This document shows positions 2,556 through 30,462 of a stretch of 32,895 nt of DNA, piece by piece. The DNA lies in the NCBI GenBank assembly GCA_030640495.1, contig DAOWJH010000086.1, positions 1 to 32,895 on the forward strand, written 5' to 3'. Source of the stretch: Dehalococcoidia bacterium (lineage in GTDB: Bacteria; Chloroflexota; Dehalococcoidia; Dehalococcoidales; DAOWJH01). A program made the translations under genes and the position numbers. Numbering within the stretch: the stretch's first letter is position 1; the number at the start of each line of letters is the position of its first letter. The notes below the pieces were generated by a model that was given only the letters and a program-made list of their open reading frames with translations, ran no database searches and had not been told where the DNA came from.

Positions 2556-2585
2556 TAGCAAAAGTATTTAATAGTGAGGTGGGAA

Positions 2586-3761: not shown

Positions 3762-3830
3762 ACAAAGTAGCAATACTGTGTAAGTACGATTAAACTAAAA
3801 TAATATACTTCTCTAGTATCAAGGTGGAAG

Positions 3831-5003
3831 GTGAAATTACTAGTTATAGGTTGTGGGCAGTGTGGCGGCAGGATTGCCGATGAGTTTGCTCTGCTAAATA
3901 GAAGGGCACATGGTCAGCGTGGAATTGATATAATCACTAATACCCTGGCTGTCAATACCGATGTTGCTGATTTAAGCGGGCTATCCTTTATAAGACCTGA
4001 TTACCAGCACAGAATCCTCATCGGAGGTAGGAAGACTGGTGGTCATGGTGTAGGTAAAATAAATGAACTGGGTTCTGAGATAGCCAAGGAAGATGGCGAC
4101 AAGATTATAGAATGTATTAGAACAACACGGCATCTCCATGAGACAGATGCCTTCCTGCTTATCGCCAGTGCTGCTGGTGGTACCGGCTCAGGGGCAATAC
4201 CAATACTAACGCAATACATAAAAGAGCACTACGGGGAAAAACCATTATATAATCTTATTGTCCTTCCTTTTAAGCATGAAGAGAAAATAGAGGAAAGGAC
4301 TATTTATAATACAGCGACATGTCTCAAATCGGCTTACTTAGTGGCTGACGCCATATTTCTGGTTGATAATCAAAGGTATGTTAGAAAGGATTTCTCGATT
4401 CAGAGCAACCTAGCCAAAATTAACGCCCTAGTAGTTGAGCCGTTCTACAACCTACTTTGCGCTGGTGAGGAGAAAAAGCCTAAATACATTGGGTCAAGGA
4501 TTCTTGATGCCGGAGACATAATACAGACTCTGTCGGGATGGTCAGTAATAGGCTATGGTAAATCGCAAATACCGCTGTTCAAGTTTCCTTTTGGGGCGTC
4601 TAATTTCAGGGAGAAAGCCAGTGAAAGCCAAAAGGGAGTTCAAGTAATGAACGAGGCCATAAACGAATTATCGCTCAAGTGCAATCCCTCAGATACGAAG
4701 CGAGCCCTTTATCTTCTTTCGGCGCCAGCCGAGGAAATGAATATGAGCCTGATTAATGAAATCGGGAATTGCCTAAAACGTATAGCCACAGAGGCTATCA
4801 TAAGGAGCGGCGATTATCCCAGGGAAAAACGCTCGATAGATATCACTGTAATTCTGTCCGAGCTGATTAATGTGGGGAAGGTTATGGAATACTTTACCCA
4901 AGCCATCCTCTATATCTCTTCTTACAAGAAGAGATGGGAGGGGTTAGAGCACGAACATGAAGGAATTGAAGAGGCCTTTAGGGATATACCTTCCCTGCTG
5001 TAA
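3831..5003 (+). CDS. CetZ-type tubulin/FtsZ-superfamily GTPase, paralog B (390 aa)
   Basis: GTG start preceded by AAGGTGGA. Carries the same motifs as paralog A (GCGQCGG, NTDVADL, GGTGSG, LDAGDIIQTL, RSGDYP). By eye it is ~75-85% identical to A over the GTPase domain and lower toward the C-terminus. It lies 69 nt downstream of A on the same strand. Confidence 0.8.
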   Translation: MKLLVIGCGQCGGRIADEFALLNRRAHGQRGIDIITNTLAVNTDVADLSGLSFIRPDYQHRILIGGRKTGGHGVGKINELGSEIAKEDGDKIIECIRTTRHLHETDAFLLIASAAGGTGSGAIPILTQYIKEHYGEKPLYNLIVLPFKHEEKIEERTIYNTATCLKSAYLVADAIFLVDNQRYVRKDFSIQSNLAKINALVVEPFYNLLCAGEEKKPKYIGSRILDAGDIIQTLSGWSVIGYGKSQIPLFKFPFGASNFREKASESQKGVQVMNEAINELSLKCNPSDTKRALYLLSAPAEEMNMSLINEIGNCLKRIATEAIIRSGDYPREKRSIDITVILSELINVGKVMEYFTQAILYISSYKKRWEGLEHEHEGIEEAFRDIPSLL

Positions 5004-5055: not shown

Positions 5056-5577
5056 CTATCTCTTCTCCTTGGAGAAGATTTTCCAAGCTCGCTCTATAGC
5101 CTCGGTGCGAGTTGCCCAAGCTTGGTCTATAGTCTCCTGACGAACTATTAAGGCTTGCCTCACATTCTCATCAACAGTCCTCTTGATTTGCTCTTTAGTT
5201 CGTCTAGATGTTTCTTCGGCTTGTTCTCTCGCTTTCTGATATGCCTTCTCGGCTTGCTGCTCAGCCCCCTCACGAGCCCTTAAGGCTTGTGCTATGGTCT
5301 GCTCACAGGTGCTATTGGCTTGCTGTTCAGCCTCCTTATAGGCTTCCTCCATTTGTTGTTCATTGGCCTTATATGCCTTCGCCACTTCCCTCTCAGCATC
5401 CACATAAGCGGCATAGGCTGATTCAACTCGCCCCAGAACCTCAGCAAGAGGTTCCCTAGCCTGTTCCTGAACCTCAGCAGCAGCTTCTTCCGCCTGTTCT
5501 TGAGCCTCAGTAACGGGTTCTGCCGCCTGCTCTTCAGCTTTTCTATCGGCCTTTTTCTCCAACTCCCTCGGATTCAT
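5056..5577 (-). CDS. Glu/Ala/Gln-rich predicted coiled-coil protein (173 aa), function unknown
   Basis: Uninterrupted ORF with a Shine-Dalgarno-like AGGGGG and its own candidate promoter. Low-complexity helical sequence with recurring AY-x-x-A/EQQ motifs. No transmembrane segment or signal peptide. Coding status is supported mainly by length and start context. Confidence 0.6.
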   Translation of the reverse strand: MNPRELEKKADRKAEEQAAEPVTEAQEQAEEAAAEVQEQAREPLAEVLGRVESAYAAYVDAEREVAKAYKANEQQMEEAYKEAEQQANSTCEQTIAQALRAREGAEQQAEKAYQKAREQAEETSRRTKEQIKRTVDENVRQALIVRQETIDQAWATRTEAIERAWKIFSKEKR

Positions 5578-5686: not shown

Positions 5687-7468
5687 TTATGATTCCTCTT
5701 CTTCATCCTCTTTCGCAGCTTGCTTGGCTTTATTAGCCTCATACATTCTGGCTAAGAACTCCAAGCGACTCTCAATCTTTCCCTTGTGAACCCCTTCCTC
5801 CTTTCTTTTTTCTTTGGCACTAGTTTTCCCAGCCTTACTTATTATTGCTTCCCGGGGTGTTTCTACTGGTGCCTTGGCAATCTCCTTGACCATCTCTCTG
5901 GTTACTTTGTCCGCCGCTTCAGCGCCGCCTATTGCTTCCTCAAATGCTTTTATTGATACCTTGGCAGCCTCTTTGGCAGCTCTCATTGATTGCTCAGCAG
6001 CCTCCCTGGCGGCTCTGGCTGATGCTTCAGCAGCTTCCCTAGCTGATTTACTTGCTTCTTCAGCCCTGGTTATTGCCTCCTGTGATGCCCTTGCCGATGC
6101 CCCAGTAGCCTTTTTGACAGCCCTTATTGATTGCTCAACAGCCTCTTTGGCTGATTCACTTGCCTCCTCAGCCCTGGTTATCGCCTCCTGTGATGCCTTT
6201 GTCGATGCCTCAGCAGCCTCCCTGGCTGATTTACTTACCTCCTCAGCCTTGATTATCGCCTCCTGCGATGCCCTTGCCGATGCCTCAGTAGCCTCCTTAG
6301 CCGATTTACCTGCCTCCTCAGCCCTGGTTATCGCTTCCCGTGATGCCCTTGCTGATGCTTCGGCAGTCTCCCTAGCTGATTTACTTATTTCTTCAGCCCT
6401 GGTTATCGCTTCCTGAGATGCCCTTGCCGATGCCTCGGCAGTCTCCTCGGCTGATTTGCTTATTTCCTCAGCCGTGGTTATTGCTTCCTGTGATGCCCTC
6501 TTTGATTCCTCAATAGTCTCTATAGACAGTTTGCTTATTTCCTCGGCTCTATCTATAGCTTCCTGTGACACTCTCTTTGATTCCTCAGTAGCCCCCCTGG
6601 TAGACTGGATTGTTTCCTCAGCCCGGCCTACTACCTCCTGAGATACCCTTACCGCCTCTTCAGCCGCATCCTTGGCCGATTGAATTGTTTCCTCAGCCTT
6701 GCTTATCGCTTTCTCAAAGGTCTTTGCTGAGGTGCTAGCAGCCTCCTCAGCCGACTTGGTTACTTTATCAGCCTTGCGCACTGCTTCCCGTGATGCTTTC
6801 TTTGATTCCTCAGCAACCTTCTTGGTCGCCTTGCTTACTTCCTCGGCCTCGCTTACTGCTTCCTTGGATACTCTTACTGATTCTTCAGCCGCTCCCTTAG
6901 CCAACTGGCCTACTTCTTCAGCCCGGCTTACCGCCTCCTGGGATACACTCACCGCTTCCTCAGCTGCCGCCTTAGCCAACCGACCTGTTTGCTTAGCCCT
7001 ACTTAACGCCTCCAAGGATATTCTTACCAATTCTTCAGCCGCCGCCTTAGTTGATTGGATTGTTTCCTCAGCTCCGCGTATTGCTTCCACGAATGCTTTC
7101 TTTGATGCCTCAGAGGTCTCCTTAGCTACCCTGTGTGTTTCCTCAGCTTTGCTTAGCGTCTGCTTAAAAGCATCCCTTGACTCCCTAGTAGCTTCCTCGG
7201 TTGCTTTGATTATTTCCTCAGCCCTATGCACCGCTTCCCGCGATGCTCTTTTGGCAGCATTAGCCGCCAGCTTAGCTGCCTTACTTATCTCCTCAGCCTT
7301 GGTTATGGCTTCCTGGGATACTACTATTGAGCCTTCAGCCGCCTGCCTAGCCAACTGGCTAAGTTTCTCAGCCCTAGCCACTGCTTTTTCAAAGGCTCCG
7401 GTATCACCTTCTGTATCCCCTAAGACTTCAAGGGGGACATTACCCAGTTTCTTGGCTTTACTATCCAT
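5687..7468 (-). CDS. Repetitive Ala/Glu/Ser-rich coiled-coil protein (593 aa) built from 25-residue repeats, function unknown
   Basis: Long ORF with no transmembrane segment or signal peptide. The consensus unit SQEAIxRAEExxKxAxExAExSxRA recurs at residues 51, 76, 101 ... 426, exactly 25 aa apart. Acidic C-terminal tail EDEEEES. Confidence 0.7.
   Translation of the reverse strand: MDSKAKKLGNVPLEVLGDTEGDTGAFEKAVARAEKLSQLARQAAEGSIVVSQEAITKAEEISKAAKLAANAAKRASREAVHRAEEIIKATEEATRESRDAFKQTLSKAEETHRVAKETSEASKKAFVEAIRGAEETIQSTKAAAEELVRISLEALSRAKQTGRLAKAAAEEAVSVSQEAVSRAEEVGQLAKGAAEESVRVSKEAVSEAEEVSKATKKVAEESKKASREAVRKADKVTKSAEEAASTSAKTFEKAISKAEETIQSAKDAAEEAVRVSQEVVGRAEETIQSTRGATEESKRVSQEAIDRAEEISKLSIETIEESKRASQEAITTAEEISKSAEETAEASARASQEAITRAEEISKSARETAEASARASREAITRAEEAGKSAKEATEASARASQEAIIKAEEVSKSAREAAEASTKASQEAITRAEEASESAKEAVEQSIRAVKKATGASARASQEAITRAEEASKSAREAAEASARAAREAAEQSMRAAKEAAKVSIKAFEEAIGGAEAADKVTREMVKEIAKAPVETPREAIISKAGKTSAKEKRKEEGVHKGKIESRLEFLARMYEANKAKQAAKEDEEEES
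5936..7318 (-). repeat. In-frame 75-nt (25-codon) tandem repeat array inside the 593-aa gene
   Basis: 16 consecutive units with exact 25-codon spacing, then an 11-codon insertion and ~2 more units. The most similar units span about 6011-6493 (SQEAITRAEE(I/A)SKSARE(T/A)AEASARA). Confidence 0.85.
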
Positions 7469-16821: not shown

Positions 16822-17075
16822 TTAAAGTCCATAAGGAGATATGGTGCCCAGACCAAGGGTGACCAGTCAGGTGGTGAGCTGGGTTGAACAGGAGCTTCGC
16901 CGCCACCGAGTTCCATTAATAAGAACAGCGTCCGATGCTTTGCCTCGGAGTGGCTCAATAAGGCTACGGAGATTGTAAAAAGTAAGCGGGGAGACCTGGA
17001 AGGGGGTGATATTGGCAGAGATAAAATTTAAAAACCAGCAGTAAAAGTCAGCAAAATATATGACGAGGAGGAAAT
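16822..17075 (+). promoter_or_regulatory. Long conserved 5' leader of TRAP operon 1 (candidate cis-regulatory RNA)
   Basis: About 250 nt lie between the promoter and the dctP start. The core at 16934-17014 aligns at roughly 70-75% identity (by eye) with the leader of operon 3 (29974-30055, minus strand). Confidence 0.4.
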
Positions 17076-18275
17076 ATGATTGGAGGTAAAAAGATTAAGC
17101 CTTTAGTGTTTGTTAGTTTAGCTTTAGTTCTAGCGCTCTCTCTAGTGGCTGGTGCTTGTGCTCCAGCGGCACCAGAGGAGGCTGCCGAGGAGGTTGCCGC
17201 GCTGGAATCAAAGTTAGCTGCGGAAAAGTCCAAAGTCTCTAGTCTGGAGGGCGAGGTTTCTGACCTGGAGGGCGAGGTTTCTGACCTGGAGGGCGAGATT
17301 GCTGAGCTAAGAGCACCGGCTGAGGTGTTTGAGTGGAAGTTCCAAACGTGGGCTACCCCGGGAGACATAGACTTTGCGGGCTACCAACTTTCAATAGAAG
17401 AGCTTAAGGCGGCATCTGACGGCCGGATAGATATTGAACTATTTGGTGTCGGGGTGCTAGTGGGAGGGGTTGAGGCAATTGAAGCTGAGGGCGCAGGAAT
17501 AATTGATGGAAGTTTCGCCTTTGGTGGCTATTATTCGGGTTATGACTTCGCCTTTGGAGTCGCCGGCTCCCCAGCCTCCCTCTTCCCAGACTTTAGGACC
17601 CATACGCTGTGGTTCGAGGAGTTTGGCGGTATCGAGCTAATGAGAGAACTTTACGGCGGGTACAATATTTATTATGTCTGCCCAATAGAGCTGGTTGCCG
17701 AAGCTATAAACTCCGTGGTCCCCATCAGGAACCTTGATGACCTTCAGGGATTAAAAATCAGATTGGGGGGTGGGGGTTTTTGTGCTGAGGTCTTTACCAG
17801 GGCGGGAGCCGTAGTTCACTTTATATCTGGAGGCGAGATTTATTCGGCGCTGGATACAGGGCTTGTTGAAGCTGGTGAATTCGTAGGCCCAACCACGAAT
17901 TGGGCGCTCGGTCTCCATGAGGTTACAGACTATGTCTTATGGCCGGCACCTCATAATAGAACGATATACACCGAGCTGACGCTAAATATGGATGTCTGGG
18001 AAGGGTTGCCTGACAACCTCAAGGATCTCATTCATGCGGCGCGACATACAATTTCAGCGAACAACCGTTACAGAATACTGGCTGCCGATTTGGACACAAT
18101 AGACAAGATGGTTGCTTTAGGTCTAGAGCACACAGTGTTCGCACCTGAGAGTTGGAAGGTGCTGGAGGAGTTGAGTTTTGAAGTCGCTTTAGAGTCCAAG
18201 GAGAAGAGCCCAATGAGTGAGAGGATGATTACCTCACAACTTGATTTGTTGGAGCGCCTAGGGTACATAGATTAG
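17076..18275 (+). CDS. dctP: TRAP transporter solute-binding protein (DctP-type) with lipoprotein signal and N-terminal coiled-coil stalk
   Basis: Signal peptide with lipobox-like LVAGAC. Heptad segment at residues ~40-80. DctP-family features (GLKIR, YSALDTGLVEAGE). Followed by dctQ and dctM. Confidence 0.8.
   Translation: MIGGKKIKPLVFVSLALVLALSLVAGACAPAAPEEAAEEVAALESKLAAEKSKVSSLEGEVSDLEGEVSDLEGEIAELRAPAEVFEWKFQTWATPGDIDFAGYQLSIEELKAASDGRIDIELFGVGVLVGGVEAIEAEGAGIIDGSFAFGGYYSGYDFAFGVAGSPASLFPDFRTHTLWFEEFGGIELMRELYGGYNIYYVCPIELVAEAINSVVPIRNLDDLQGLKIRLGGGGFCAEVFTRAGAVVHFISGGEIYSALDTGLVEAGEFVGPTTNWALGLHEVTDYVLWPAPHNRTIYTELTLNMDVWEGLPDNLKDLIHAARHTISANNRYRILAADLDTIDKMVALGLEHTVFAPESWKVLEELSFEVALESKEKSPMSERMITSQLDLLERLGYID
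17244..17306 (+). repeat. 21-nt (one heptad) tandem repeat: two perfect copies and one imperfect copy
   Basis: CTGGAGGGCGAGGTTTCTGAC at 17244-17264 and 17265-17285, then CTGGAGGGCGAGATTGCTGAG at 17286-17306. This encodes LEGEVSD LEGEVSD LEGEIAE. Confidence 0.95.
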
Positions 18276-18301
18276 TGGTATAGACGACTATAGTTACAAG
18301 T

Positions 18302-18337
18302 CTGGGGGGTGTAGGGTAGTTTCACTATGCCCCCCAG
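18302..18337 (+). other. Intercistronic hairpin between dctP1 and dctQ1
   Basis: CTGGGGGG (18302-09) and CCCCCCAG (18330-37) form an 8-bp GC-rich stem with a 20-nt loop. There is no clear U-tract. Confidence 0.35.
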
Positions 18338-18423
18338 TGTTTGTGAACTTCATTAGAATTTTGATTAAAAACTTAATACATTCCATAATATAGCCCTTAT
18401 TATATAAGGACGGTTCATAAGGA

Positions 18424-18927
18424 ATGAAGTCTTTTTTGTCAGTTATTGACAGCATGAGTGAATGGTCGGGAAAAATCTTTTCCTTTTTAGTGTTGGCGGC
18501 AGTCCTGGTAGCAACCTACGAAGTGGTAATGAGGTATGCCTTTAACGCCCCTACCGTGTGGAGTCTTGACCTGACCATATTTTTGTGTGGTGCCACCTAT
18601 GTGATGGCGGGAGCCTATGCCCATTACCATAACGCCCATGTTAAGATAGAGGCATTGTATGGGCGCTGGACGCCACGGACGAGGGCTATGGTTGACTTGT
18701 TGGTTACTGCTCCGCTGTTATTTGGCTTTTGTGGTGTGCTGGTATGGGTAGGGATAGGATGGACTTGGGAGGCCATAGTCGGAAAGATAACCTATTATAC
18801 AGAGTGGCACGCGCCCATCTGGCCGATGAGGCTGATAATAACCTTAGCCGCCTTTCTTCTGCTACTTCAGGGATTGGCTAAATTCATTCGCGACCTGGCT
18901 ACTATCAAGGGAAAGGGAGCAGTATGA
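18424..18927 (+). CDS. dctQ: TRAP transporter small permease
   Basis: 167 aa with 4 predicted transmembrane segments. Its stop overlaps the dctM start (ATGA). It is a paralog of 22438-22950 and 28164-28679. Confidence 0.85.
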   Translation: MKSFLSVIDSMSEWSGKIFSFLVLAAVLVATYEVVMRYAFNAPTVWSLDLTIFLCGATYVMAGAYAHYHNAHVKIEALYGRWTPRTRAMVDLLVTAPLLFGFCGVLVWVGIGWTWEAIVGKITYYTEWHAPIWPMRLIITLAAFLLLLQGLAKFIRDLATIKGKGAV

Positions 18928-20243
18928 GTCCCGAGCTGGTTACTGTGGTGATGGTGGGCTCCTTTTTTGTATTGCTGGCAGTAGGGGTTCCTCTTGCCTG
19001 GGCTGCTGCCGCCGTGGGTCTGGCAGTCGGTTTCATCCTGTCGGGTCCCGACATTTTCCCTATGCTCGTTTACCGCATCTGGAACACAATGTGCAGCTGG
19101 AGTCTGATAGCTGTTCCCCTGTTTGTCTTCATGGCGAATATGCTGCAACATTCTGGAATAGCCGATGACCTGTATGAAGCCTTTTACCGTTGGTTGGGTC
19201 CGATTAGAGGCGGCCTGGCAATGGCCAGTGTGGCAGTCTGCACCCTTGTGGCGGCGATGCTGGGGACAGCCGGAGCCGGTGTAACCATAATGGGGCTCAT
19301 TGCTCTCCCGGCTATGCTCAAGCGCAAATATGACAAACGTTTAGCCTGTGGGAGTATTGTTGCCGGTGGTAGTCTAGGAGTGCTCATCCCACCCAGCATA
19401 ATGTTTATCATTTATGGCATGTTCGCCGGCGTATCAATAGGGAAGTTGTTCATGGGTGGCATCCTCCCAGGCTTGCTCCTTTCTTTCTTGTACATTAGCT
19501 ATATAGGCATCAGGTGTTACTTGAATCCACAGGCTGGTCCAGCACCATCCAAGGAAGAAAGAGCAGCAATTACCTTACGCCTAAAAATCACTGCTACCAG
19601 GAGCTTAATCCTACCCATCTTGCTCATCGTGGCCGTTTTAGGGTCTATTTTCAGCGGAATAGCTACCCCTGGGGAAGCAGCCGGGGTAGGGGCTATAGGG
19701 GCGATGTTATGTGCTGCTGTCCGTCGCCAATTTACCTGGCAAAATTTGAAGCTATCACTCTACGGAACTATGAGGACCATCGGTCTGGTTATGTGGATTG
19801 TATTTGGAGGTATGATCTTCATCACTATTTATACACTTGCCGGCGCCACCGACTTTGTAAGTGGGGTGCTATTTGCACTGCCCTTAGGTCCTTGGGGCAC
19901 CCTCATTGTAATCCAAGTCATACTAATCCTCCTGGGAATGGTTCTTGAGACTATCAGCATTATTGTGCTATGTGTGCCCATCTTCGTCCCCGTTATCACC
20001 GCCTTGGGCTTTAGCCCCCTATGGTTCGGAGTTCTGTTCAACATTAATCTGCAGATAGCTTACTTATCGCCGCCCTTTGGCTACTCCCTGTTCTATCTGA
20101 AAGGGGTGGCGCCTCCGGAGATAAGTGTCACCGACCTTTACCTTAGCGTCTGGCCTTTTATAATACTTCAGTTGATTGGTCTGGTTCTGTGCATGATATT
20201 CCCCCCGATAATCCTGTGGCTTCCTGGTATGATGATAAAATAG
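18924..20243 (+). CDS. dctM: TRAP transporter large permease
   Basis: 439 aa polytopic membrane protein. Conserved segments GGLAMASV...GLIALPAMLKRKYD...GSLGVLIPPS...LSPPFGYSLFYLKGVAPP are shared with the two other copies. Confidence 0.9.
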   Translation: MSPELVTVVMVGSFFVLLAVGVPLAWAAAAVGLAVGFILSGPDIFPMLVYRIWNTMCSWSLIAVPLFVFMANMLQHSGIADDLYEAFYRWLGPIRGGLAMASVAVCTLVAAMLGTAGAGVTIMGLIALPAMLKRKYDKRLACGSIVAGGSLGVLIPPSIMFIIYGMFAGVSIGKLFMGGILPGLLLSFLYISYIGIRCYLNPQAGPAPSKEERAAITLRLKITATRSLILPILLIVAVLGSIFSGIATPGEAAGVGAIGAMLCAAVRRQFTWQNLKLSLYGTMRTIGLVMWIVFGGMIFITIYTLAGATDFVSGVLFALPLGPWGTLIVIQVILILLGMVLETISIIVLCVPIFVPVITALGFSPLWFGVLFNINLQIAYLSPPFGYSLFYLKGVAPPEISVTDLYLSVWPFIILQLIGLVLCMIFPPIILWLPGMMIK

Positions 20244-20497: not shown

Positions 20498-20522
20498 GGT
20501 GTTCTTATTTAATGGAGAGGCG

Positions 20523-20996
20523 ATGAAAGAGTTTGACCCAACGGATGAAGATTATAACCTATGGCTATTTTTAGCCCAAGTAAGAGCTGTAATGTTCAAG
20601 GCTAGACAGAAAGAGGTAAGTCGATACGGTATTACTGCAGGGCAGGCCTCAGCTTTGTTTGTTATTAATGCCCTTGGCGATAGGGCAACGCCTGCCGAAA
20701 TATCAAGGTGGCTTTTCCTGAAGTCTCACTCGGTTTCTGCACTCCTGAATAGGATGGAGAAGCAAGGACTGGTGAAGAGAGCCAAGGACTTACCTAAAAA
20801 GAACCTGGTGAGAGTTGCGTTAACTGAGGAAGGACGTGAACTCTATGGTAACTGTACCAAGCGAGAATCTATGCATAAAATAATGGCTTCGCTAGATAGC
20901 AACTTGCGCCAACAACTGATGGGATGCTTAGAGAAATTACGCGATGCGACGCTGAAATATCTGGAAGAGGAGCGGGAAATGCCGTTTCCGTATTAA
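20523..20996 (+). CDS. MarR family transcriptional regulator
   Basis: Winged-helix region (YGITAGQASALFVINALGDRATPAEISRWLFLKSHSVSALLNRMEKQGLVKR). I prefer the ATG at 20523 (GGAGAGG Shine-Dalgarno site) over the GTG at 20499. Confidence 0.85.
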   Translation: MKEFDPTDEDYNLWLFLAQVRAVMFKARQKEVSRYGITAGQASALFVINALGDRATPAEISRWLFLKSHSVSALLNRMEKQGLVKRAKDLPKKNLVRVALTEEGRELYGNCTKRESMHKIMASLDSNLRQQLMGCLEKLRDATLKYLEEEREMPFPY

Positions 20997-21143: not shown

Positions 21144-22304
21144 ATGGAATTGAAAACTAAAAGACTATTGATGCTAGTTGGTAGTGTTTGTCTAGCCGTG
21201 ATGCTAGCACTGCCGCTGGTGGCAAGTTGTGGTCCAGCAGCACCAGAGGAGGGTGCCGAGGCTGAGCTAGAAGCGAAGCTAGCTGCAGAGAAGGCGAAGG
21301 TCTCTAGTCTGGAGGACGAGGTTGCCGACCTGGAGGACGAGATTGCCGGGCTAAGAGCACCAGGTGAGGTATATAAATGGAGACTGGCTGATGAATATGG
21401 CGCCGCGATGACTAGCTGGTGTCTCGACCCCCTTATTGCTGATATTAGCGACATGAGCGGTGGGCTAATTAAAATTGAGGGATACGCTTCAGGAGTGCTA
21501 GTGCCGGATGACCAGGCGCTTGATGCCTTAGATAAGAATATCATTGATATGGCACGTACTGCGTCAGCCTACTTTGCTGATAAGATGGACACCGCCATGC
21601 TCAATTGTTTGCCCTTTATTTGGCAAGATGATGTAGAGTGCGAGATACTCCTTCATAAATTAGGGCTTGAGGACATTATCCGTGAAGGCTATGCTGATCT
21701 TGGCGCTTACTATCTAAGCGAAAGTATGTCAGGTCCATACTATATGTTAACAAACACGCCTGTCACCTGTATTGCAGATTTACAACCGCTCAAGATCAGG
21801 GCTACCGCCACTAATACTCCCTGGCTAGCGGAGCTAGGGGTGTCAAGCACCTACTACCCTGCCGCCGAACTCTACACTTCATTATCTACAGGTATTGTTG
21901 ATGGGGCTATCTACGGGGGAGCGACTGACTACACAGATCTGGGGCTATTTGAGGTTGCCACATATATTATAAAGCCGACGGTTTACAATCCAGCATGCGA
22001 CCTGTACCTAGTAAGCCTGGACCTGTGGAACTCACTGCCTAAGAATCTTCAAACAATCCTGACCGCAGCAGGTAGGAAAAGCAGCCGCTTTATATACAAT
22101 GAGTTCCAGAGAAGAGAGATTGTCGACCTGGCGGCGGCCATGGAAACTTATGGCGTCACTGTAACCCATCTTCCAGCTGAAGACCAAGCACTGATATTCC
22201 AAGCAGCCGACAAGCAGTGGGACGAACAAGCTGCACGGAGTGAGCGCACTGCAAGAGGAATTGAAATTATCAGAAGCTGGCACGAAATTCTACGCGGCTC
22301 GTAG
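21144..22304 (+). CDS. dctP: TRAP transporter solute-binding protein (DctP-type) with lipobox and coiled-coil stalk
   Basis: Lipobox LVASC, then PAAPEE and the heptads LEAKLAAEKAKVSSLEDEVADLEDEIAGL. Also LKIR and LSTGIVDGAIYG motifs. AGGAGG Shine-Dalgarno site. Confidence 0.8.
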   Translation: MELKTKRLLMLVGSVCLAVMLALPLVASCGPAAPEEGAEAELEAKLAAEKAKVSSLEDEVADLEDEIAGLRAPGEVYKWRLADEYGAAMTSWCLDPLIADISDMSGGLIKIEGYASGVLVPDDQALDALDKNIIDMARTASAYFADKMDTAMLNCLPFIWQDDVECEILLHKLGLEDIIREGYADLGAYYLSESMSGPYYMLTNTPVTCIADLQPLKIRATATNTPWLAELGVSSTYYPAAELYTSLSTGIVDGAIYGGATDYTDLGLFEVATYIIKPTVYNPACDLYLVSLDLWNSLPKNLQTILTAAGRKSSRFIYNEFQRREIVDLAAAMETYGVTVTHLPAEDQALIFQAADKQWDEQAARSERTARGIEIIRSWHEILRGS

Positions 22305-22437
22305 GAAGATTTGGTCTGCCGAAGTTCCCGGTGCACAAGCAATATTTGTCACTCGTGGTCGCCTTGGCTCCTGGAGAGGGGGCTAGGGTGGCCACGAAAA
22401 CAATAAGCTTAAATCAAGAAAGGGAAAGTTGGACTAA

Positions 22438-22950
22438 GTGCTGAAATTAAAGCGTGTCCTCAGCACAATTGATGCCATAAGTAAGTGGTCAGGCTATGTC
22501 GTCATGTTCGGGACACTGGTGATAACTCTTTTTCTAACCATCGAAGTGGTAGCCCGATATGTATTTAATGCCCCTACTCTATGGGCTACAGAGTCTACCT
22601 CCATTGCTTATGGTATTATGGTACTCATCGCCGGAGCGTATGTCCTTATCACCGGTGGGCATGTCAATATGGATGCACTATACAACCGCCTCTCCCCAAG
22701 GAGAAAAGCCGCTCTGGACATATTTACTTCTGTTTTTTTCTTTACCTTTTGTGTCATATTGTTGCGGAATGGAATTCCATTGGCAATTAAGGCTATAGTA
22801 TTGCAGGAGCACTCTCAAAGTGCCTGGGGAGCCCCATGGTGGCCAACAAGGATAGCAATACCCATAGGGGCTTTCTTAATACTGCTTCAAGGATTGGCTA
22901 AGTTAATCCGTGATTTTTATACTGCTGTGACGGGAAGTAAGTTGGTATGA
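22438..22950 (+). CDS. dctQ: TRAP transporter small permease
   Basis: 170 aa with 4 transmembrane segments. GTG start per the ORF track. 4-nt overlap with the dctM start. Confidence 0.8.
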   Translation: MLKLKRVLSTIDAISKWSGYVVMFGTLVITLFLTIEVVARYVFNAPTLWATESTSIAYGIMVLIAGAYVLITGGHVNMDALYNRLSPRRKAALDIFTSVFFFTFCVILLRNGIPLAIKAIVLQEHSQSAWGAPWWPTRIAIPIGAFLILLQGLAKLIRDFYTAVTGSKLV

Positions 22951-24275
22951 GCATTGAACTTATTTCGTTATTGATGTTCGGCAGTATGCTATTACTCATA
23001 TTAAGCGGATTACCTATAGCTTTTGCCTTAGGTGGTCTATCAGTTATATTTGTTTCTTTGCTATGGGGTCCTGAAGCAATAGAGCTGATTCTCTACGCAA
23101 CCATGGATGTACAAAATATGTACACTATCGTGTGCGTTCCTGGTTTTGTCTTCACCGGGATTATTCTACAAAACTCTGGCATTGCCGATGACATGTTCGA
23201 CACAATACGAAAATGGTCTGGCCGACTCAAAGGTGGGTTGGCAATCGGTGTGGTGATTATTTGTGCTCTCTTCGGCGCTATGGTAGGAATAGCTGCAGTG
23301 GGTACCCTGACTATGGGGCTCATTGCCCTTCCGGCTATGCTTAAGCGCCACTATGATAAAGAACTAGCGATGGGGACCATTCAGGCTGGAGGTGCACTGG
23401 GTTGTCTCATTCCCCCTAGCGTCGTCTTCGCTCTTTATGGAGTTATCGCCCGACAGTCAATTGGGCAACTGTTCATGGCAGGGCTTTTCCCCGGGCTGCT
23501 GCTTGCCGGTTTATTTATTATCTATATAGTGATAAGGTGTCATTTTCAGCCCCACCTCGGGCCTGGACTCCCCCCTGAAGAGAGGGTTTCCTGGAATGAG
23601 AAGTTTGCTTCCCTCAAGGGGCTTATATTTCCTTTCCTTTTAATCTTCCTGGTTCTGGGGCTAATCATGCTGGGTGTTACTACCCCTACTGAAGCCTCTG
23701 CCGTAGGGGCTCTAGGTAGCATTATTGTGGCTATTATTCGTCGGAAGTTTAATTGGCCTATGTTGAAGGATGCCCTCCTGAGTACCATGAAACTCACTGC
23801 CATGGTTGCCTGGATCTTTATAGCCGCTCTGTCCTTTAGCCGAATATACACCGGCTTAGGAGCTGTTGAGCTGCTGGCTGGCTGGCTAGAGGGTATTGGA
23901 TTGGGACCTTGGGGTACCATCATACTGATGCAGGTCAGCTTCTTTCTTATGGGATTCGTCTTGGATGAACAGGCTATGCTTTTCATTGTTGCTCCTATCT
24001 ATATACCCATAGTTGCCGGCTTGGGTTTTGACCTCGTATGGTTTGGGGTTCTCTATGTCATGAATACAGAGATGGCTTTGCTGACACCGCCTTACGGTTT
24101 CAACCTGTTTTACATGAAAAGTATCGTTCCTAAAGGTATAACCATGATGGATATTTATAAATCGGTCATTCCCTACGTAGGGCTTCAAGCGCTGGGGTTA
24201 GCCATGGTCATGATATTTCCACAAATAGCCATGTGGCTTCCAGGCCTGGTATCGGCTAGATTAGCTCAAGGTTAA
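22947..24275 (+). CDS. dctM: TRAP transporter large permease
   Basis: 442 aa and a paralog of 18924-20243 (GLIALPAMLKRHYD, LTPPYGFNLFYMK). Confidence 0.9.
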   Translation: MSIELISLLMFGSMLLLILSGLPIAFALGGLSVIFVSLLWGPEAIELILYATMDVQNMYTIVCVPGFVFTGIILQNSGIADDMFDTIRKWSGRLKGGLAIGVVIICALFGAMVGIAAVGTLTMGLIALPAMLKRHYDKELAMGTIQAGGALGCLIPPSVVFALYGVIARQSIGQLFMAGLFPGLLLAGLFIIYIVIRCHFQPHLGPGLPPEERVSWNEKFASLKGLIFPFLLIFLVLGLIMLGVTTPTEASAVGALGSIIVAIIRRKFNWPMLKDALLSTMKLTAMVAWIFIAALSFSRIYTGLGAVELLAGWLEGIGLGPWGTIILMQVSFFLMGFVLDEQAMLFIVAPIYIPIVAGLGFDLVWFGVLYVMNTEMALLTPPYGFNLFYMKSIVPKGITMMDIYKSVIPYVGLQALGLAMVMIFPQIAMWLPGLVSARLAQG

Positions 24276-24352: not shown

Positions 24353-25414
24353 ATGACTATTACCAAGAAGGAACTTACTGGAAAGGCTCAAACTGTGTTG
24401 GGCCCGATTGATGTGGAGGAACTGGGAATAACTCTACCTCATGAACACTTTCTTCTTGACATGGGGGTTTGGTTTGACCCGCCCAAAATAGCCAGCGAGA
24501 AGGCACTGGCATACCAACCAATCACCATGGAAAACCTCGGCTGGGTGCACTATAACGAGTATAAAAACCTGGATAATGTGCAATTGCTGGATGAAGAGTT
24601 AGCTATTAAGGAAGCTATGCTATTCAAAAAAGAAGGCGGTAAGACAATTGTTGATGTTACCAATGTTAACCTTAGCCGTGACCCTGCAGCCCTAGTGCGT
24701 ATTTCCCAGGTTACAGGTCTCAATATAATTATGGGCTCAGGCTACTACGTAGGTGAGGCACAGGGGGAGGACTTTGACCGTAAGTCTGAAGAGGAGATTG
24801 CAGAAGAAATTGTGCGAGATATTACGGTAGGAGTTGACGACACAGGGATATGCTCTGGGATTATTGGGGAGGTTGGCGGCTCATGGCCTTTACAAGACAG
24901 AGAGAAAAAGAGTTTGCGTGCTTCTGCCCGTGCCCAGAAACTTGCCGGGGCACCAATTACTTTACATACCGGTCGTAACGAAGGTTCACCACTAGAAATG
25001 AGCCAAGTGCTGGATGATGCTGGCGCTGATATGAGCCATGTGGCGGTAGGGCATTTAGACCGCGAGGTCTACTCCCTCAAAAGTCTCCTGGACTTAGCCA
25101 AGGGAGGTTGCTATCTTCAATATGATGGCTTTGGAGACACAGTATTTTACTCGCTGCATCTTGGAGTATACGATAGGCCAAGTGATATACAGCGCATCAG
25201 GCAAATTATGGAACTCATTGACAAGGGATATTTAAACCAGATTCTCATATCGCATGATGTTTGCCTGAAGACAAAGCTTGTTGCTTATGGCGATGGTGGC
25301 TATGCCCATATCTTGCGCAATATCGTACCTCAGATGCGAGCCAGAGGTGTCTCCGCAAAAGAAATACATACCATACTAGTGGAAAACCCAAAACGCTTTC
25401 TGCAGTTTCACTAA
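24353..25414 (+). CDS. Phosphotriesterase-family (PTE/PHP-like) amidohydrolase-fold hydrolase, possibly a lactonase
   Basis: N-terminal metal-binding GITLPHEHFLLD (HxH), an internal HTG, and a later ISHD. It lies 77 nt after dctM2 with a strong Shine-Dalgarno site (AAGGAGG), so it is likely in the same operon. Confidence 0.75.
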   Translation: MTITKKELTGKAQTVLGPIDVEELGITLPHEHFLLDMGVWFDPPKIASEKALAYQPITMENLGWVHYNEYKNLDNVQLLDEELAIKEAMLFKKEGGKTIVDVTNVNLSRDPAALVRISQVTGLNIIMGSGYYVGEAQGEDFDRKSEEEIAEEIVRDITVGVDDTGICSGIIGEVGGSWPLQDREKKSLRASARAQKLAGAPITLHTGRNEGSPLEMSQVLDDAGADMSHVAVGHLDREVYSLKSLLDLAKGGCYLQYDGFGDTVFYSLHLGVYDRPSDIQRIRQIMELIDKGYLNQILISHDVCLKTKLVAYGDGGYAHILRNIVPQMRARGVSAKEIHTILVENPKRFLQFH

Positions 25415-25646: not shown

Positions 25647-26612
25647 TTATGATTTTGATGGAAAGACAGCTCCCATGAAGTGGAGAATTAACGCAGCGAT
25701 TGTTCGAGAAGTCATATTGCTACAGTCATAAGCAGGACAAAAACAAGCCACGTCAAAACCGACCACCCTTCCCCTTTTGGCTATCCCAACAAGGGTCTGC
25801 TGGACCTCTAAGAAGCTTAACCCACCTGGCTCCTGAAAGGTTGTGCCCGGTGCCACCGATGGGTCCAAAGCATCGACATCAAGGCTTACATAGATATTCT
25901 TAGCCTCGGGAATGCTCTCTACCACCTTACTAACTCCCATCTGTCTGAACTTATTAGCTGTAATGATTTTCTCGCCATACTTCAAAGCTGCGTCATAGGC
26001 TTTCCTAGAACTAGGTGGTAAAGGAGCTCTGAAGCCAATCAGCGTTATGTTATGAACGAAAGGAAGCTCAGAGCAGCGCCTAAATGCACTGGCGTTGAAG
26101 ACTTTTACCCCCTCCTCCGTCTCATCTTCAAAGTCCAGGTGGGCGTCAAGATACACAATATCAAGAGGTTCATATCTCTCAAAAGCTTTTACCACCAGAA
26201 AGGGAATCGTATGGTCCCCCCCGATGACCACGGGAAGGCTACCACGAGCCAATATCTGCCTGACCGTTTTAGCTACCCTCTCAAAGTTCCCCTCATTTTC
26301 AGTAGGTAGAATATTTACATCACCGCAATCAGCCATAGTAACACCCTTTAATTCCTCTACACCAGTATCAACATTGAACCACCCACAAGCAGCCTCAGCC
26401 TGGCCATCGTCGGTATAGGAATATTCGCTCTGGGCTTGGCGGACTGCTGCCGGACCCCACCTAGTGCCACCCCGGCACCACCTTCTCGAGCCGTAGTCGA
26501 AGGGAAGCCCTAGGAAGGCGATATCCGCTGAGAGCTCATCAAGATTGCTACAGGTAGGCATACCGAATAGTGTCTTAACCCCTGACAGAACATCCCTCGT
26601 TTTTTTTCTCAC
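25647..26612 (-). CDS. Arginase/agmatinase/formiminoglutamase-family ureohydrolase
   Basis: Mn-binding motifs GGDHTI, DAHLDF and SLDVDALDP. GTG start with an AAGGAGA Shine-Dalgarno site. It lies downstream of TRAP operon 3 on the same strand. Confidence 0.85.
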   Translation of the reverse strand: MRKKTRDVLSGVKTLFGMPTCSNLDELSADIAFLGLPFDYGSRRWCRGGTRWGPAAVRQAQSEYSYTDDGQAEAACGWFNVDTGVEELKGVTMADCGDVNILPTENEGNFERVAKTVRQILARGSLPVVIGGDHTIPFLVVKAFERYEPLDIVYLDAHLDFEDETEEGVKVFNASAFRRCSELPFVHNITLIGFRAPLPPSSRKAYDAALKYGEKIITANKFRQMGVSKVVESIPEAKNIYVSLDVDALDPSVAPGTTFQEPGGLSFLEVQQTLVGIAKRGRVVGFDVACFCPAYDCSNMTSRTIAALILHFMGAVFPSKS

Positions 26613-26847: not shown

Positions 26848-28167
26848 TCACCCAAGCGCAAAAACTGTTTCAGGAAGCCATAAGGCTAACTGCGGGAAGA
26901 GTAGAACCAAAACTAACACAGATGCTTGGATTATTAAAAAGGGCCAAATAGAACGGTAGATATCTGTTATGGTTACTCCAGGTGGAGCCACTCCCCTCAT
27001 ATAGAACAGACAATAGCCGAATGGAGGAGTCAAGTAGCCTAGCTGCATATTAATTATGAAAAGAACTCCAAACCATACCGGGTCAAAGCCAAAAGCCACA
27101 AGAATTGGGGCATACACGGGAATTGTCAATGTTATCATAGTTATTTCTTCTACAATGCAGCCTAAAAGTATGTAGCTTAACTGCATAAATACAACAAGCA
27201 TAATGGGTGACACTGTTAAGTCTGTCAATACTCCGCGGACTAACTGGGCAGTACCTATATCAATAAATATAGTAGCAAATATTTTCGCCCCGAAAATGAT
27301 CCACATAATGATACAGTTAATTACAAAAGTTCGGTAGCATGCCTCTTTAAATAGCTGCCAGCTAAGTTTGCGGCGAATAGCAATGGAAACTAAAATGGCA
27401 ACAGCTCCTACAGCAGCAGATTCCATAGGGGAGGCTATACCCAGAAAGATCGAACCTAGCATGATGACGATAATAACAATAGGTATAATTACTCCCCTGC
27501 TTAGAGCAAGCTTCTGCCTAAAAGGTAGCCTGTCTTCAGGGGGCACAACGGGACCAAGGCTCGGTCGAAAATGACATCTCAGACCTATATAGGTCATATA
27601 GGATGCTGATAGAATAACTCCCGGGATAAGCCCTCCGGCAAACAACCTTCCTATAGATGTGTGTGTCAACATACCAAAGATGATGGCGGTAACGCTGGGA
27701 GGGATGAGGATTCCCAATGCTCCACCAGCCATGATAGGAGCCAGTGCTATACTTTTGTCATACTTGTACCTGAGCATTATGGGAAGGGCGATAACTCCCA
27801 TGGTGATTACGCCAGCAGCGGCTACTCCTGACATGGCGGCAATTACAGTGCAAACTACCACTGTGGCTATGGCTAGGCCGCCAGGTACCGCTGCCAACCA
27901 GTGGCGTATAGCTGCATATAGTTCTTCTGCTAGGCCAGACTTTTCCAAGAGGCAAGCTATAAAAATAAATAGAGGCATCGCAACCAGGGATAGCGATACC
28001 ATTCCAGAATAGACCTGCATGGCAGCGATGGTAAGCACACGCGTCCCCCCGTAGATAAAGCCAACTACTATGGCGCTAGACCCCAAAGTGAAGGCCATGG
28101 GAAAGCCTAGAGCCAAACCAACAAAGAGGCAGGCAAGGAGTATAATTAGCAGTGTAAGAGGAGTCAC
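26848..28167 (-). CDS. dctM: TRAP transporter large permease
   Basis: 439 aa and the third paralog (GVIALPIMLRYKYD, LTPPFGYCLFYMRGVAPP). Confidence 0.9.
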   Translation of the reverse strand: MTPLTLLIILLACLFVGLALGFPMAFTLGSSAIVVGFIYGGTRVLTIAAMQVYSGMVSLSLVAMPLFIFIACLLEKSGLAEELYAAIRHWLAAVPGGLAIATVVVCTVIAAMSGVAAAGVITMGVIALPIMLRYKYDKSIALAPIMAGGALGILIPPSVTAIIFGMLTHTSIGRLFAGGLIPGVILSASYMTYIGLRCHFRPSLGPVVPPEDRLPFRQKLALSRGVIIPIVIIVIMLGSIFLGIASPMESAAVGAVAILVSIAIRRKLSWQLFKEACYRTFVINCIIMWIIFGAKIFATIFIDIGTAQLVRGVLTDLTVSPIMLVVFMQLSYILLGCIVEEITMITLTIPVYAPILVAFGFDPVWFGVLFIINMQLGYLTPPFGYCLFYMRGVAPPGVTITDIYRSIWPFLIIQASVLVLVLLFPQLALWLPETVFALG

Positions 28168-28679
28168 TTTAGCTCTTCCCTTTTAATAACTAACCAGAAA
28201 TTTCGTATAGCTAGAGCCAAAGTTTGAAGTAACATTAGCAAGGCGGCTAGAGGTATACATATCTTAACCGGATATAATGGAGAACGGAACATGGTACACG
28301 TAGTTTCTCTGGCTAGTGTAGAGCTTAGTGCCATGTTAAATCCTTGTACAAATATGAGGATGAGCAGCATAAAGAGAAGGGGGAAGGCTATTAAATCACA
28401 AATTGCCTTCCCCCTTTCTGAGAACCGGGCATAGATAACATCTGACCTAATATGCTGGTTAAGCAAAAGGGCGTAACCACCACCAATAACTGAATACGCA
28501 GCAAAGATAGCGCAGGTTATTTCATGCGCCCAATGCGTAGGTGAGTTAAATCCGTATCTTAAAACAACTTCATAGGCCAATATCAAAGTCATGAATATAA
28601 TGAGCACACTGAGAACCTTCCCGGTGTGCGCATTAATCATGCCAATAATACGCAAAAAACGTAAAAGATGATTACGCAT
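28164..28679 (-). CDS. dctQ: TRAP transporter small permease
   Basis: 171 aa with 4 transmembrane segments. 4-nt overlap with dctM. Confidence 0.85.
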   Translation of the reverse strand: MRNHLLRFLRIIGMINAHTGKVLSVLIIFMTLILAYEVVLRYGFNSPTHWAHEITCAIFAAYSVIGGGYALLLNQHIRSDVIYARFSERGKAICDLIAFPLLFMLLILIFVQGFNMALSSTLARETTCTMFRSPLYPVKICIPLAALLMLLQTLALAIRNFWLVIKREELK

Positions 28680-28703: not shown

Positions 28704-29912
28704 CTATTTTAGCCCGGCTAGCTCGGCTATACCTGGCTCGTATTTGATTAGGAAATCTTGAAGTATTTGGAGTGCTTCTTGACTGGGCGCATCAGTGGAG
28801 AACTCCTCTGTAGCATCAAGCACTGCCTTCTGATATATGAGAATATCCTCAGCAGACCAGTCTATTATTTCAATTCCGCGCTCTTCTGCTATCTCCCAAG
28901 CCTCGGCATTAACCTTAGCCCCATCGTAAATTGCATAGGTGTCTGCCGCTCCAACCGCTGTGCTTACTATAGCCTTAAGGTCATCAGTAAGTTCGCCCCA
29001 TTCCGCTTCATTTACAGCGAACCAGTAACCCATCGTGTCTTGCGTATAAGGCTCTCGAATCCAATAGTCAGTGACGTCATCCCAGCCCATTTCCAGGTAA
29101 TCTGAAGCACAGGCGTAGGAAATGGCATCCACGAGGCCAGTGGCTAATGAGGTGTAGCATTCCCCCCCTGGGAACCACGTTGTTGCCGCCCCTAACGACT
29201 CCCAGGCTCCAGCGTCTGCTGTAGCCCCAGTCCTATACTTTATCCCTGGAATATCTTCTATACCATAGATAGGAACTGTTGAAGCAGTGCAACAAAACTC
29301 TCGCGTAACAACTACTGGTGTGACAATGTGTATACCAGGATAATATTTGTCAGTTTCCTCCCTTATTAGCTCAAGCACCCGACCGTTAGCCTCATATTGA
29401 AGATACTGCCTAATCTCCCAGGGTTTATATAGGACATGCGAGGCGTTGGATGCCAACATATAAAGAGGAACTTTACCTTCCCAGTAATCAAGATAGAGAA
29501 ACATCGCCGGGGTTGCGCCCGTAGAGACGAATTCTATCTGTTGTGGCACAGCACATAGCGCCCCCGGTAGCGTGGGCTCAGCAACTATGCGCCCGTCCGA
29601 CGCCTCGGTTATGTAATCGCATATATTACACAAGCAACGCCAGTGGATTCCTGCACTTGCCCAACATGATGGCTTCCATTTCAGCACCTCAGCCGGTTTT
29701 TTCAGGGCTGCAATCTCATCCTCCAGGTCGGCAACATCATCCTCCAACCCGCTAGACTTCGCCTTTTCCACAGTTAATTTTGATTCCAGCTCGGCAATCT
29801 CCCCGGCAGCCTCCTCTGGTGTCGCTGGAGCACAGCTTGCCACCAGCGGCACTGCCAGCATCAGAGCTAGACAAACACTGCCAAGTAACGTCAATAATCT
29901 TTTCCTTTTCAA
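28704..29912 (-). CDS. dctP: TRAP transporter solute-binding protein (DctP-type) with lipobox and coiled-coil stalk
   Basis: TTG start after an AAGGAGG Shine-Dalgarno site. Lipobox LVASC, then PATPEE and the heptads LESKLTVEKAKSSGLEDDVADLEDEIAAL. Also IKYR and LATGLVDA motifs. Confidence 0.78.
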   Translation of the reverse strand: MKRKRLLTLLGSVCLALMLAVPLVASCAPATPEEAAGEIAELESKLTVEKAKSSGLEDDVADLEDEIAALKKPAEVLKWKPSCWASAGIHWRCLCNICDYITEASDGRIVAEPTLPGALCAVPQQIEFVSTGATPAMFLYLDYWEGKVPLYMLASNASHVLYKPWEIRQYLQYEANGRVLELIREETDKYYPGIHIVTPVVVTREFCCTASTVPIYGIEDIPGIKYRTGATADAGAWESLGAATTWFPGGECYTSLATGLVDAISYACASDYLEMGWDDVTDYWIREPYTQDTMGYWFAVNEAEWGELTDDLKAIVSTAVGAADTYAIYDGAKVNAEAWEIAEERGIEIIDWSAEDILIYQKAVLDATEEFSTDAPSQEALQILQDFLIKYEPGIAELAGLK

Positions 29913-30372: not shown

Positions 30373-30462
30373 GGAGGGGTGTCCGAGTGGTCTATGGTGA
30401 CGGTCTTGAAAACCGTTGTTCCTGCAAGGGGACCGTGGGTTCGAATCCCACCCCCTCCGCCA
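30373..30462 (+). tRNA. tRNA-Ser (anticodon UGA) with long variable arm and encoded CCA
   Basis: Acceptor stem GGAGGGG/CCCCTCC. D-arm TCCGAGTGGTC. Anticodon stem ACGGT/ACCGT with loop CTTGAAA. Long variable arm. T-arm GTGGG-TTCGAATC-CCAC. Discriminator G followed by CCA. Confidence 0.92.

Follow-up and report, generated by a model that had tools for sequence, protein, structure and literature searches.

A stretch of 32,895 nucleotides from a Dehalococcoidia metagenome-assembled genome (MAG), called the window below, carries three complete operons for transporters of the TRAP (tripartite ATP-independent periplasmic) type. The DctP-type solute-binding proteins (SBPs) of all three begin with the same kind of front end: a lipoprotein signal peptide, a short linker and a stalk that satisfies the sequence criteria for a coiled coil. 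TRAP receptors are usually taken to be soluble in the periplasm or to be tethered in a simple way. The DctP family and the lipoprotein class are already known; what is new is a tethered TRAP receptor whose heptad stalk is structured and swappable. DNA comparisons support well that the front end (5' leader, signal peptide and stalk) is a 5' cassette swapped among TRAP operons by recombination or gene conversion. Taken as a whole, the picture of a lipid-anchored, self-associating heptad tether, exchanged as such a cassette in an envelope that probably lacks peptidoglycan, is considered rather probable.

The window is contig C70 of the MAG (G000; 0.84 Mb, 58% complete, 48% G+C). The operons have the order dctP-dctQ-dctM and lie at 17076-20243 (+), 21144-24275 (+) and 29912-26848 (-); their receptors are termed SBP 1 (P0001), SBP 2 (P0002) and SBP 3 (P0003). 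All three receptors score above the cut-offs of PF03480 (23.4 bits; scores in Table 1) and NF037995 (50 bits), the latter with 60.6, 103.1 and 50.8 bits for SBP 1, 2 and 3, and each of their genes is directly followed by dctQ (PF04290) and dctM (PF06808) genes. They are predicted to be organic-acid (DctP-type) receptors.

The lipoprotein front end

The three receptors share one order of elements: lipobox, PA(A/T)PEE linker, a/d heptad helix, L-(R/K)-x-P-(A/G)-E-V junction and DctP fold. The lipobox LVA(G/S)(A)C and the linker, both reported in a preliminary description of this DNA, are seen in the translations, and the boundaries given there for the module are exact in all three genes, running from the lipobox Cys (+1) to the junction Pro. 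The lipoboxes of SBP 1, 2 and 3 (LVAGAC, LVASC and LVASC) satisfy the PROSITE pattern PS51257, and each is preceded by a K/R-rich n-region and a hydrophobic h-region. The genome encodes Lgt (PF01790, contig C99, E 6e-51) and LspA, the signal peptidase II (PF01252, contig C47, E 2e-37). Since the lipobox lies N-terminal to the stalk and both enzymes are encoded, acylation and cleavage should take place at the lipobox Cys, and the stalk is predicted to be kept on the mature lipoprotein rather than cleaved off with the signal peptide.

The heptad stalk

In the three receptors of the window, the stalk helix comprises 37-46 residues with unbroken a/d heptads. A register and shuffle test was applied to 26 stalks, taken from the receptors of the window and their homologues in metagenomes. 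Every one of them has a single unbroken register in which all, or all but one, of its L, I, V and M residues fall on a/d positions (P <= 0.0005 for each stalk), which confirms the canonical heptad segment claimed earlier and speaks against a lack of coiled-coil propensity. When four stalks from related MAGs are added and the positions of all 30 are pooled, a is occupied by V, I or L and d mainly by L (122 L, 33 E, 18 A). The register at the end is identical in all stalks, with L at d and R or K at e, followed by x-P.

The lengths of the helix segments cluster at 36, 39, 43 and 46 residues, so that 36 and 43 on the one hand and 39 and 46 on the other differ by exactly one heptad. In an alignment of 18 N-termini, both large gaps span seven columns. 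A 21-nt tandem repeat in the stalk of SBP 1 encodes three LEGEVSD heptads and is present in 3.0 copies, with only two in the near-identical orthologue P0211; going by this repeat count, the SBP 1 stalk has gained one heptad.

Compared on its own with the Protein Data Bank (PDB), the stalk matches trimeric and dimeric coiled-coil fibres, namely P22 gp26 (E 1.8e-5), reovirus sigma-1, fibritin, BST-2 and GCN4 constructs, and it also scores weakly against Pfam coiled-coil models. AlphaFold2 (AF2) models of SBP 1 and SBP 3, computed as monomers from a 31-sequence alignment, contain one straight helix each, at residues 35-79 and 35-71, which is not packed on the domain and has a predicted length of about 6.7 nm in SBP 1 and 5.5 nm in SBP 3. 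The helix is followed by a 5-residue linker and then by the DctP fold with pLDDT values above 90.

Exchange of the 5' cassette

The clearest sign of exchange is a sharp breakpoint between orthologous operons. From about position 17293 through dctP, dctQ and dctM, operon 1 and metagenome contig L013 share about 90% DNA identity; upstream of it, identity falls to 0-66% (45-nt windows). Another contig, L014, runs collinear with the window beginning at about 16784. At the protein level, P0004 and P0006 are 95% identical in the mature domain and only 45-48% in signal peptide and stalk. The reverse is found in paralogues with 24-35% mature-domain identity, whose signal peptides are 93-96% and whose stalks are 73-88% identical. 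Stalk identity does not follow domain identity (Spearman -0.08). Both patterns meet in the related MAG CSMAG_2702: its paralogues L003 and L004 are 86% identical in N-terminal DNA and 36% in mature-domain protein, and L003 and its orthologue P0014 share 94% of the mature domain and 68% of the N-terminus. Overall, paralogues whose binding domains are 24-36% identical have signal peptides of 80-96% and stalks of 70-88% identity.

Within the genome of the window, contig C16 carries a fourth copy of the module where it is cut off. The DNA of the paralogues is 70-78% similar over leader, signal and stalk, with the similarity ending at 17288-17337 and, between operons 1 and 3, beginning at 16934 and 30055; no similarity is detectable between them in mature-domain DNA. 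A single blastn match joins 16934-17288 of operon 1 to 30055-29703 of operon 3 (71% identity), and a second one joins 17000-17287 of operon 1 to C16 (75%), leader and coding part of the cassette being contiguous. The leader block GGAAGGGGGTGATATTGACAGAGATAAA is common to operons 1 and 3 and C16, and does not occur in operon 2. The nucleotide-level similarity previously noted between the stalks of SBP 1 and SBP 2 is real: the 19-mer quoted for it is exact at 21297-21315 and matches at 18 of 19 positions at 17232-17250, with 0 matches expected from shuffles, and blastn gives 75-82% for this pair.

Synonymous sites tell the same story. In the N-terminal part, identical residues share their codon at about twice the rate expected from the codon usage of the genome (P <= 0.001 in all six pairs), and in the mature domains same-codon use equals expectation. 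The signal peptide of SBP 1 agrees with that of the C16 copy in 82% of amino acids and 83% of nucleotides, and that of SBP 2 with SBP 3 in 81% and 85%. By signal type, copy 1 groups with C16 and copy 2 with copy 3, while the most shared stalk codons are found in copies 1 and 3; these differing groupings indicate that signal and stalk have separate histories.

Mapped on a maximum-likelihood tree built from 71 mature domains, stalk type changes 33 times (minimum 25, shuffled mean 48) and signal type 31 times (minimum 19, shuffled mean 42), and an orthologue-group control stays exactly at its minimum. Module and domain therefore differ in phylogeny; the exchanged unit is larger than the stalk, since it comprises leader, signal and stalk. 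The suggestion of module exchange or gene conversion in the preliminary description is borne out by the orthologue breakpoint, the front-end identity of paralogues, the codon excess and the tree. One breakpoint of the cassette is at the conserved junction of stalk and domain, and another is near the lipobox.

Two explanations would dispense with a moving protein module. According to the first, the receptors are ancient duplicates whose N-termini are merely under stronger purifying selection. Low-complexity stalks bound by heptad rules would indeed inflate identity, yet this explanation is scarcely tenable. It does not account for an abrupt break in similarity between orthologues with about 90% DNA identity, for normally fast-evolving signal peptides that are 93-96% identical on domains of 24-35% identity, for a synonymous-codon surplus confined to the N-terminal part, or for the 8 extra switches of stalk type and 12 of signal type on the domain tree. 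Strong selection on the stalk, which had been offered as an alternative to exchange, is excluded as the sole cause in the same way, because the breakpoint, the synonymous excess and the similarity of the leaders go beyond what selection alone or duplication without exchange can explain.

According to the second, conservation acts at the RNA or DNA level: the leader together with the 250 nt that open the coding sequence would serve as a regulatory element, or as one that couples translation to secretion, and the heptads would be incidental. The extension of similarity into the 5' leader and the surplus of shared synonymous codons would fit such an element. However, stalk types of unrelated DNA keep the a/d register and the end register, stalks change in length by complete heptads (21 nt), the module is present in operon 2 although the shared leader is missing there, and no Rfam family matched at the leader and stalk region, all of which makes this highly improbable.

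The signal type of SBP 2 and SBP 3, M(T/R)RK(K/R)LL...LVASC, was also observed on two receptors without the stalk, the metagenome TAXI protein P0168 (PF16868, 340 aa) and the DctP protein P0105 (390 aa). The signal peptide thus circulates without the stalk and across receptor families.

Distribution of the module

Stalks are present in orthologues of all three copies (P0004, P0006, P0007, P0008, P0211, P0049 and P0048). Within the genome, a search for further carriers of the same N-terminal module yielded the copy on C16; about a dozen plausible lipoproteins inspected did not have it. In a fifth DctP, on contig C17, the lipobox is accompanied by no more than a short acidic linker. In a scan of a genome collection, the module occurred only in two further MAGs of the Dehalococcoidia, CSMAG_1256 and CSMAG_2702, which makes three with the source MAG. 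Other DctPs of these two carry Pro/Thr-rich tethers of 20-30 residues, or short ones, at the same position, and in proteobacterial homologues the signal peptide is a plain one.

When 400 genomes sampled from the class were searched with a profile of the module, no true copy turned up, only three weak matches; 200 further genomes from the order of CSMAG_2702 (G401) gave no match. The three weak matches are unrelated lipoproteins, each having a lipobox and an acidic coiled coil of its own. In them, the acidic heptads follow the lipobox at L006 76-1731 (-) in G156, L008 1489-2799 (+) in G252 and L007 1501-1983 (+) in G246; the set includes a DUF3108-like domain, an esterase/abhydrolase domain and a small protein of 161 aa. 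The layout of anchor plus coiled coil is therefore not confined to TRAP receptors in this class.

A profile search over 1.84 billion representative proteins gave 52 matches at E <= 1e-10. The 40 N-terminal matches retrieved consist of 34 DctP proteins (33 of them stalked), one TAXI-type receptor sharing only the signal peptide, and five generic coiled-coil proteins. In total, at least 71 stalked DctPs of full length are present in public metagenomes; they form 40 orthologue groups, and most lie on short contigs. Across this 71-member family, stalks span 24-92 residues and are of acidic or mixed Glu/Lys types. The public record P0005 (316 aa; 96% identity to P0001, covering 79% of its length) starts at MFEWKFQ, just past the stalk; it may have lost signal peptide and stalk through the gene call or a cut contig, and such records mask the module.

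Binding domains and comparison with known systems

The mature domains of SBP 1-3 are 23-27% identical, close to the 20-25% first estimated by eye; their stalks reach 62-70% and their signal peptides up to 81%. The best Foldseek match of SBP 1 is TTHA0766 of Thermus thermophilus (2zzv), with a target-normalised TM-score (TMt) of 0.88 over 324 of 330 columns. TakP of Rhodobacter sphaeroides is matched as well (2hzk/2hzl; TMt 0.83-0.84 for 2hzk), and the range over the TTHA0766/TakP group is 0.82-0.88. The C-terminal helices of the SBP 1 model (357-394) are part of this likeness, as the fold match to TakP-type receptors includes the C-terminal helical extension. R229, in a K-I/Y-R motif, is nearly invariant in the 31-sequence alignment and may correspond to the ligand-binding Arg of SiaP or TakP.

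TakP (2HZK/2HZL) and TTHA0766 (2ZZV) resemble the receptors described here in the fold of the binding domain, over nearly the full target length, and perhaps in the conserved Arg. They differ in being soluble periplasmic proteins with ordinary signal peptides, without a lipid anchor or an N-terminal stalk. TTHA0766 is taken here to belong to the same dimeric group as TakP. The latter is a helix-swapped dimer in solution (PMC1839085). The alignments of 60 solved TRAP receptors listed begin only at query residues 68-104, where the stalk ends. In agreement with the earlier remark that such a stalk is not a standard feature of TRAP receptors, none was found in the Pfam model, and the literature searched contained no description of a coiled-coil stalk or tether on binding lipoproteins.

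Residues 80-100 of SBP 3 are Cys-rich: KPSCWASAGIHWRCLCNICDY has five Cys in 21 residues, more Cys pairs follow later (FCC, YACAS), and these residues are kept in the cluster representative P0048. Going by this pattern, the extracytoplasmic receptor may contain disulfides or a metal site.

In overall layout, the closest likeness is to the lipoprotein-tethered SBPs of monoderm bacteria, which have a lipobox signal, an acylated Cys, a spacer and a binding domain, and keep the receptor near its permease without an outer membrane. Paralogues in the related genomes, together with P0041 and P0042, represent this monoderm form with Pro/Thr-rich or short linkers. The spacer of monoderm tethered SBPs is disordered or Pro-rich, whereas that of the present family is a register-conserved heptad helix of 24-92 residues.

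The preliminary description had also drawn a parallel to Braun's lipoprotein (Lpp) of Escherichia coli, in which the acylated Cys likewise directly precedes a heptad coiled coil. The coiled coil of Lpp has V or I at a and L at d. The length of Lpp sets an envelope distance (PMC5736177, PMC8824477). No LPP family was among the Pfam matches at E <= 0.01, and Lpp was absent from the 60 PDB stalk matches listed. Moreover, Lpp is linked to peptidoglycan through its C-terminal Lys, whereas the helix discussed here leads into a 315-residue receptor in an organism that is probably without peptidoglycan. As homology the parallel fails, and the comparison with Lpp is an analogy only. The ABC importers GlnPQ and OpuA of Lactococcus lactis also keep one or more receptor domains close to the membrane unit and at a defined spacing from it (10.1101/2020.12.19.423572, PMC11065425). 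They differ in that the receptor is covalently fused to the permease by short linkers, without a coiled coil, and in belonging to ABC and not TRAP systems.

Proposed arrangement at the cell surface

No transpeptidase of the penicillin-binding protein type was found in the three module-bearing genomes, and each has only one Mur-ligase-type gene, which may be folC. Dehalococcoides mccartyi has an inner membrane and an S-layer and no peptidoglycan (PMC13721041). The envelope of the present organism is probably a cytoplasmic membrane without peptidoglycan as well, in which case receptors would need tethering.

In the mechanism proposed, the receptor would be exported, lipid-modified at the lipobox Cys and cleaved before that Cys. 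The mature protein would consist of the acylated Cys, a Pro/Glu hinge (PAAPEE), an amphipathic helix of 37-46 residues, a hinge of 4-5 residues (x-P-A-E-V) and the binding domain. The stalks would self-associate through the hydrophobic a/d seam, most likely as a parallel dimer, with a trimer as the second option. The parallel dimer is favoured because the binding domains belong to the subfamily of helix-swapped dimeric receptors represented by TakP and TTHA0766; a parallel two-stranded stalk below a dimeric receptor would be the most economical model. Receptors would thus stand as small clusters on a hinged leash of 4-7 nm beside DctQM, the stalk doing the job of the Pro/Thr-rich tethers in paralogues of the related genomes. 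The contour length of those tethers is estimated at up to 8-10 nm, as against 5.5-6.7 nm for the stalk helices.

An antiparallel dimer or hairpin was considered as well, as SBP 1 has Lys at e/g in the N-terminal half of the stalk and Glu in the C-terminal half. It was ruled out: over the 30 stalks, antiparallel pairing gives 1.8 attractive and 3.2 repulsive contacts, compared with 1.9 and 2.8 for parallel pairing, and the AF2 helix is straight in both models.

Several observations weigh against a self-associating tether. Self-association is deduced from the hydrophobic seam alone, the models being monomeric, and the helix in them has a low confidence (pLDDT 54-67), which is usual for an isolated helix and no proof of it. 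The net charge of the stalks is -6 to -16, with mostly Glu at e/g. In parallel alignment, there are on average 2.8 repulsive and 1.9 attractive g-e' pairs over the 30 stalks, a surplus of repulsion that would weaken homo-association at low ionic strength. The structural look-alikes in the PDB are for the most part trimers, in contrast to the dimers indicated by the a/d rule and by the TakP-type fold. An upright, rigid stalk would keep the receptor off DctQM, so that bending at the PAAPEE and PAEV hinges must be assumed. The fourfold variation in stalk length (24-92 residues) speaks against one set distance and weakens the earlier proposal that the stalk holds the receptor at a fixed distance from the membrane. 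Finally, the absence of peptidoglycan rests on incomplete MAGs, G000 being 58% complete.

The stalk might also be a single semi-rigid helix that only sets the reach of the receptor without oligomerisation, like the Pro/Thr tethers of the paralogues. The AF2 helix is lone and straight, the net charge is strongly negative with mostly acidic e/g positions, and the paralogous tethers have a comparable contour length at the same position. On the other hand, one a/d seam runs through 26 of 26 stalks, and a stable helix that stays monomeric is not expected to expose such a hydrophobic stripe. That lengths change in steps of one heptad also indicates a packing constraint. A monomeric leash therefore appears unlikely. 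Known single alpha-helix (SAH) domains are rich in E, K and R and have no hydrophobic seam. Identity of the stalk with an SAH domain was ruled out by its continuous V/I/L seam at a/d and by its charge, which is net acidic and not balanced.

The stalk might instead be a docking element that pairs with an S-layer or envelope partner or with the stalks of other receptors, homogenisation keeping the stalks compatible. Within one genome, stalk types are shared across differing binding domains, an acidic zipper is ill suited to homo-pairing, and other Dehalococcoidia lipoproteins, namely the DUF3108-like protein and the esterase, also begin with a lipobox and an acidic coiled coil. Yet no basic partner helix was found, G401 has two different stalk types, and the module profile found no carrier other than DctP besides generic coiled-coil proteins, so that such docking is very doubtful. 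DctQ and DctM, considered as sources of a partner helix, were ruled out by their canonical lengths and by Pfam domains covering nearly all of each.

A further reading, put forward tentatively and judged distinctly unlikely, is that the stalks form an assembly code. Receptors of different specificity with the same stalk would co-assemble in mixed coiled-coil clusters or dock on an envelope or S-layer partner common to them, and recombination of the cassette would be selected for compatibility and co-regulation. If true, this would be a so far undescribed way to arrange solute receptors on the surface of a wall-less bacterium.

Other features of the window

The features of the three operons are compiled in Table 1. 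Between the operons lie genes for a phosphotriesterase-family hydrolase (24353-25414, +), an arginase/ureohydrolase-family enzyme (25647-26612, -) and a MarR regulator (20499-20996, +), neighbours that may hint at the TRAP substrates. A tRNA gene (30373-30459, +; RF00005, 54.7 bits) sits between the leader of operon 3 and a PEMT-like gene, and the C-terminal part of an MttB-family (trimethylamine methyltransferase-like) protein (32571-32894, -) runs off the end of the window. At 2574-5003 (+), there are two neighbouring genes of the tubulin/FtsZ superfamily with a CetZ C-terminal domain (PF00091 and PF21011); their bacterial setting is clear, with DnaX, RecR and RecO close by. An open reading frame (ORF) of 593 aa at 5687-7468 (-) and an adjoining one of 173 aa at 5056-5577 have no Pfam match.

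Table 1. Positions of the TRAP operon features in the window.
Feature	Position	Strand	Basis
5' leader of operon 1	16934..17075	+	homologous to the operon 3 leader (30055-29913), partly to C16
SBP 1 ORF	17076-18275	+	PF03480, E 2.3e-28, 99.8 bits
Signal peptide of SBP 1, type MIGGKKIK...LVAGA, up to the residue that precedes the lipobox Cys	17076..17156	+	translation; AF2 helix 10-21
Cys28, PAAPEE linker and stalk to Pro81, SBP 1	17157..17318	+	translation; L/I/V/M at 11/13 a/d positions, none elsewhere
Tandem repeat, 21 nt x 3, encoding three LEGEVSD heptads	17244..17305	+	TRF period 21, 3.0 copies, 95% matches
Junction residues AEV and DctP domain, SBP 1	17319..18275	+	PF03480; AF2 pLDDT >90 from residue 85
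dctQ1	18424-18927	+	PF04290, E 1e-24
dctM1	18924-20243	+	PF06808, E 2e-85
SBP 2 ORF	21144-22304	+	PF03480, E 6.9e-39, 134.3 bits
Signal peptide of SBP 2, type K(T/R)KRLL...LVAS	21144..21227	+	translation
Cys29, PAAPEE linker and stalk to Pro73, SBP 2	21228..21362	+	blastn: operon 1 75-82%, operon 3 78%
DctP domain, SBP 2	21363..22304	+	PF03480
dctQ2	22438-22950	+	Pfam match
dctM2	22947-24275	+	Pfam match
SBP 3 ORF	28704-29912	-	PF03480, E 5.1e-19, 69.1 bits
Signal peptide of SBP 3, TTG start	29835..29912	-	same start site in cluster representative P0048
Cys27, PATPEE linker and stalk to Pro73, SBP 3	29694..29834	-	translation, register test, AF2 helix 35-71
DctP domain, SBP 3	28704..29693	-	PF03480; AF2 fold from residue 77
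dctQ3	28164-28679	-	Pfam match
dctM3	26848-28167	-	Pfam match

Implications

A structured, register-conserved stalk behind a lipid anchor runs through a radiation of at least 40 orthologue groups of TRAP receptors. The exchange of its cassette offers a compact example of how export and display modules evolve as mosaics, the breakpoint here falling at a conserved junction. It is also a warning for annotation and phylogeny, as the N-termini and the binding domains of these genes differ in history. The stalks inform on the organisation of an envelope without peptidoglycan, made up of a membrane and perhaps an S-layer. If they oligomerise, they would offer a natural system in which the effect of receptor clustering and tether length on delivery to DctQM can be followed.

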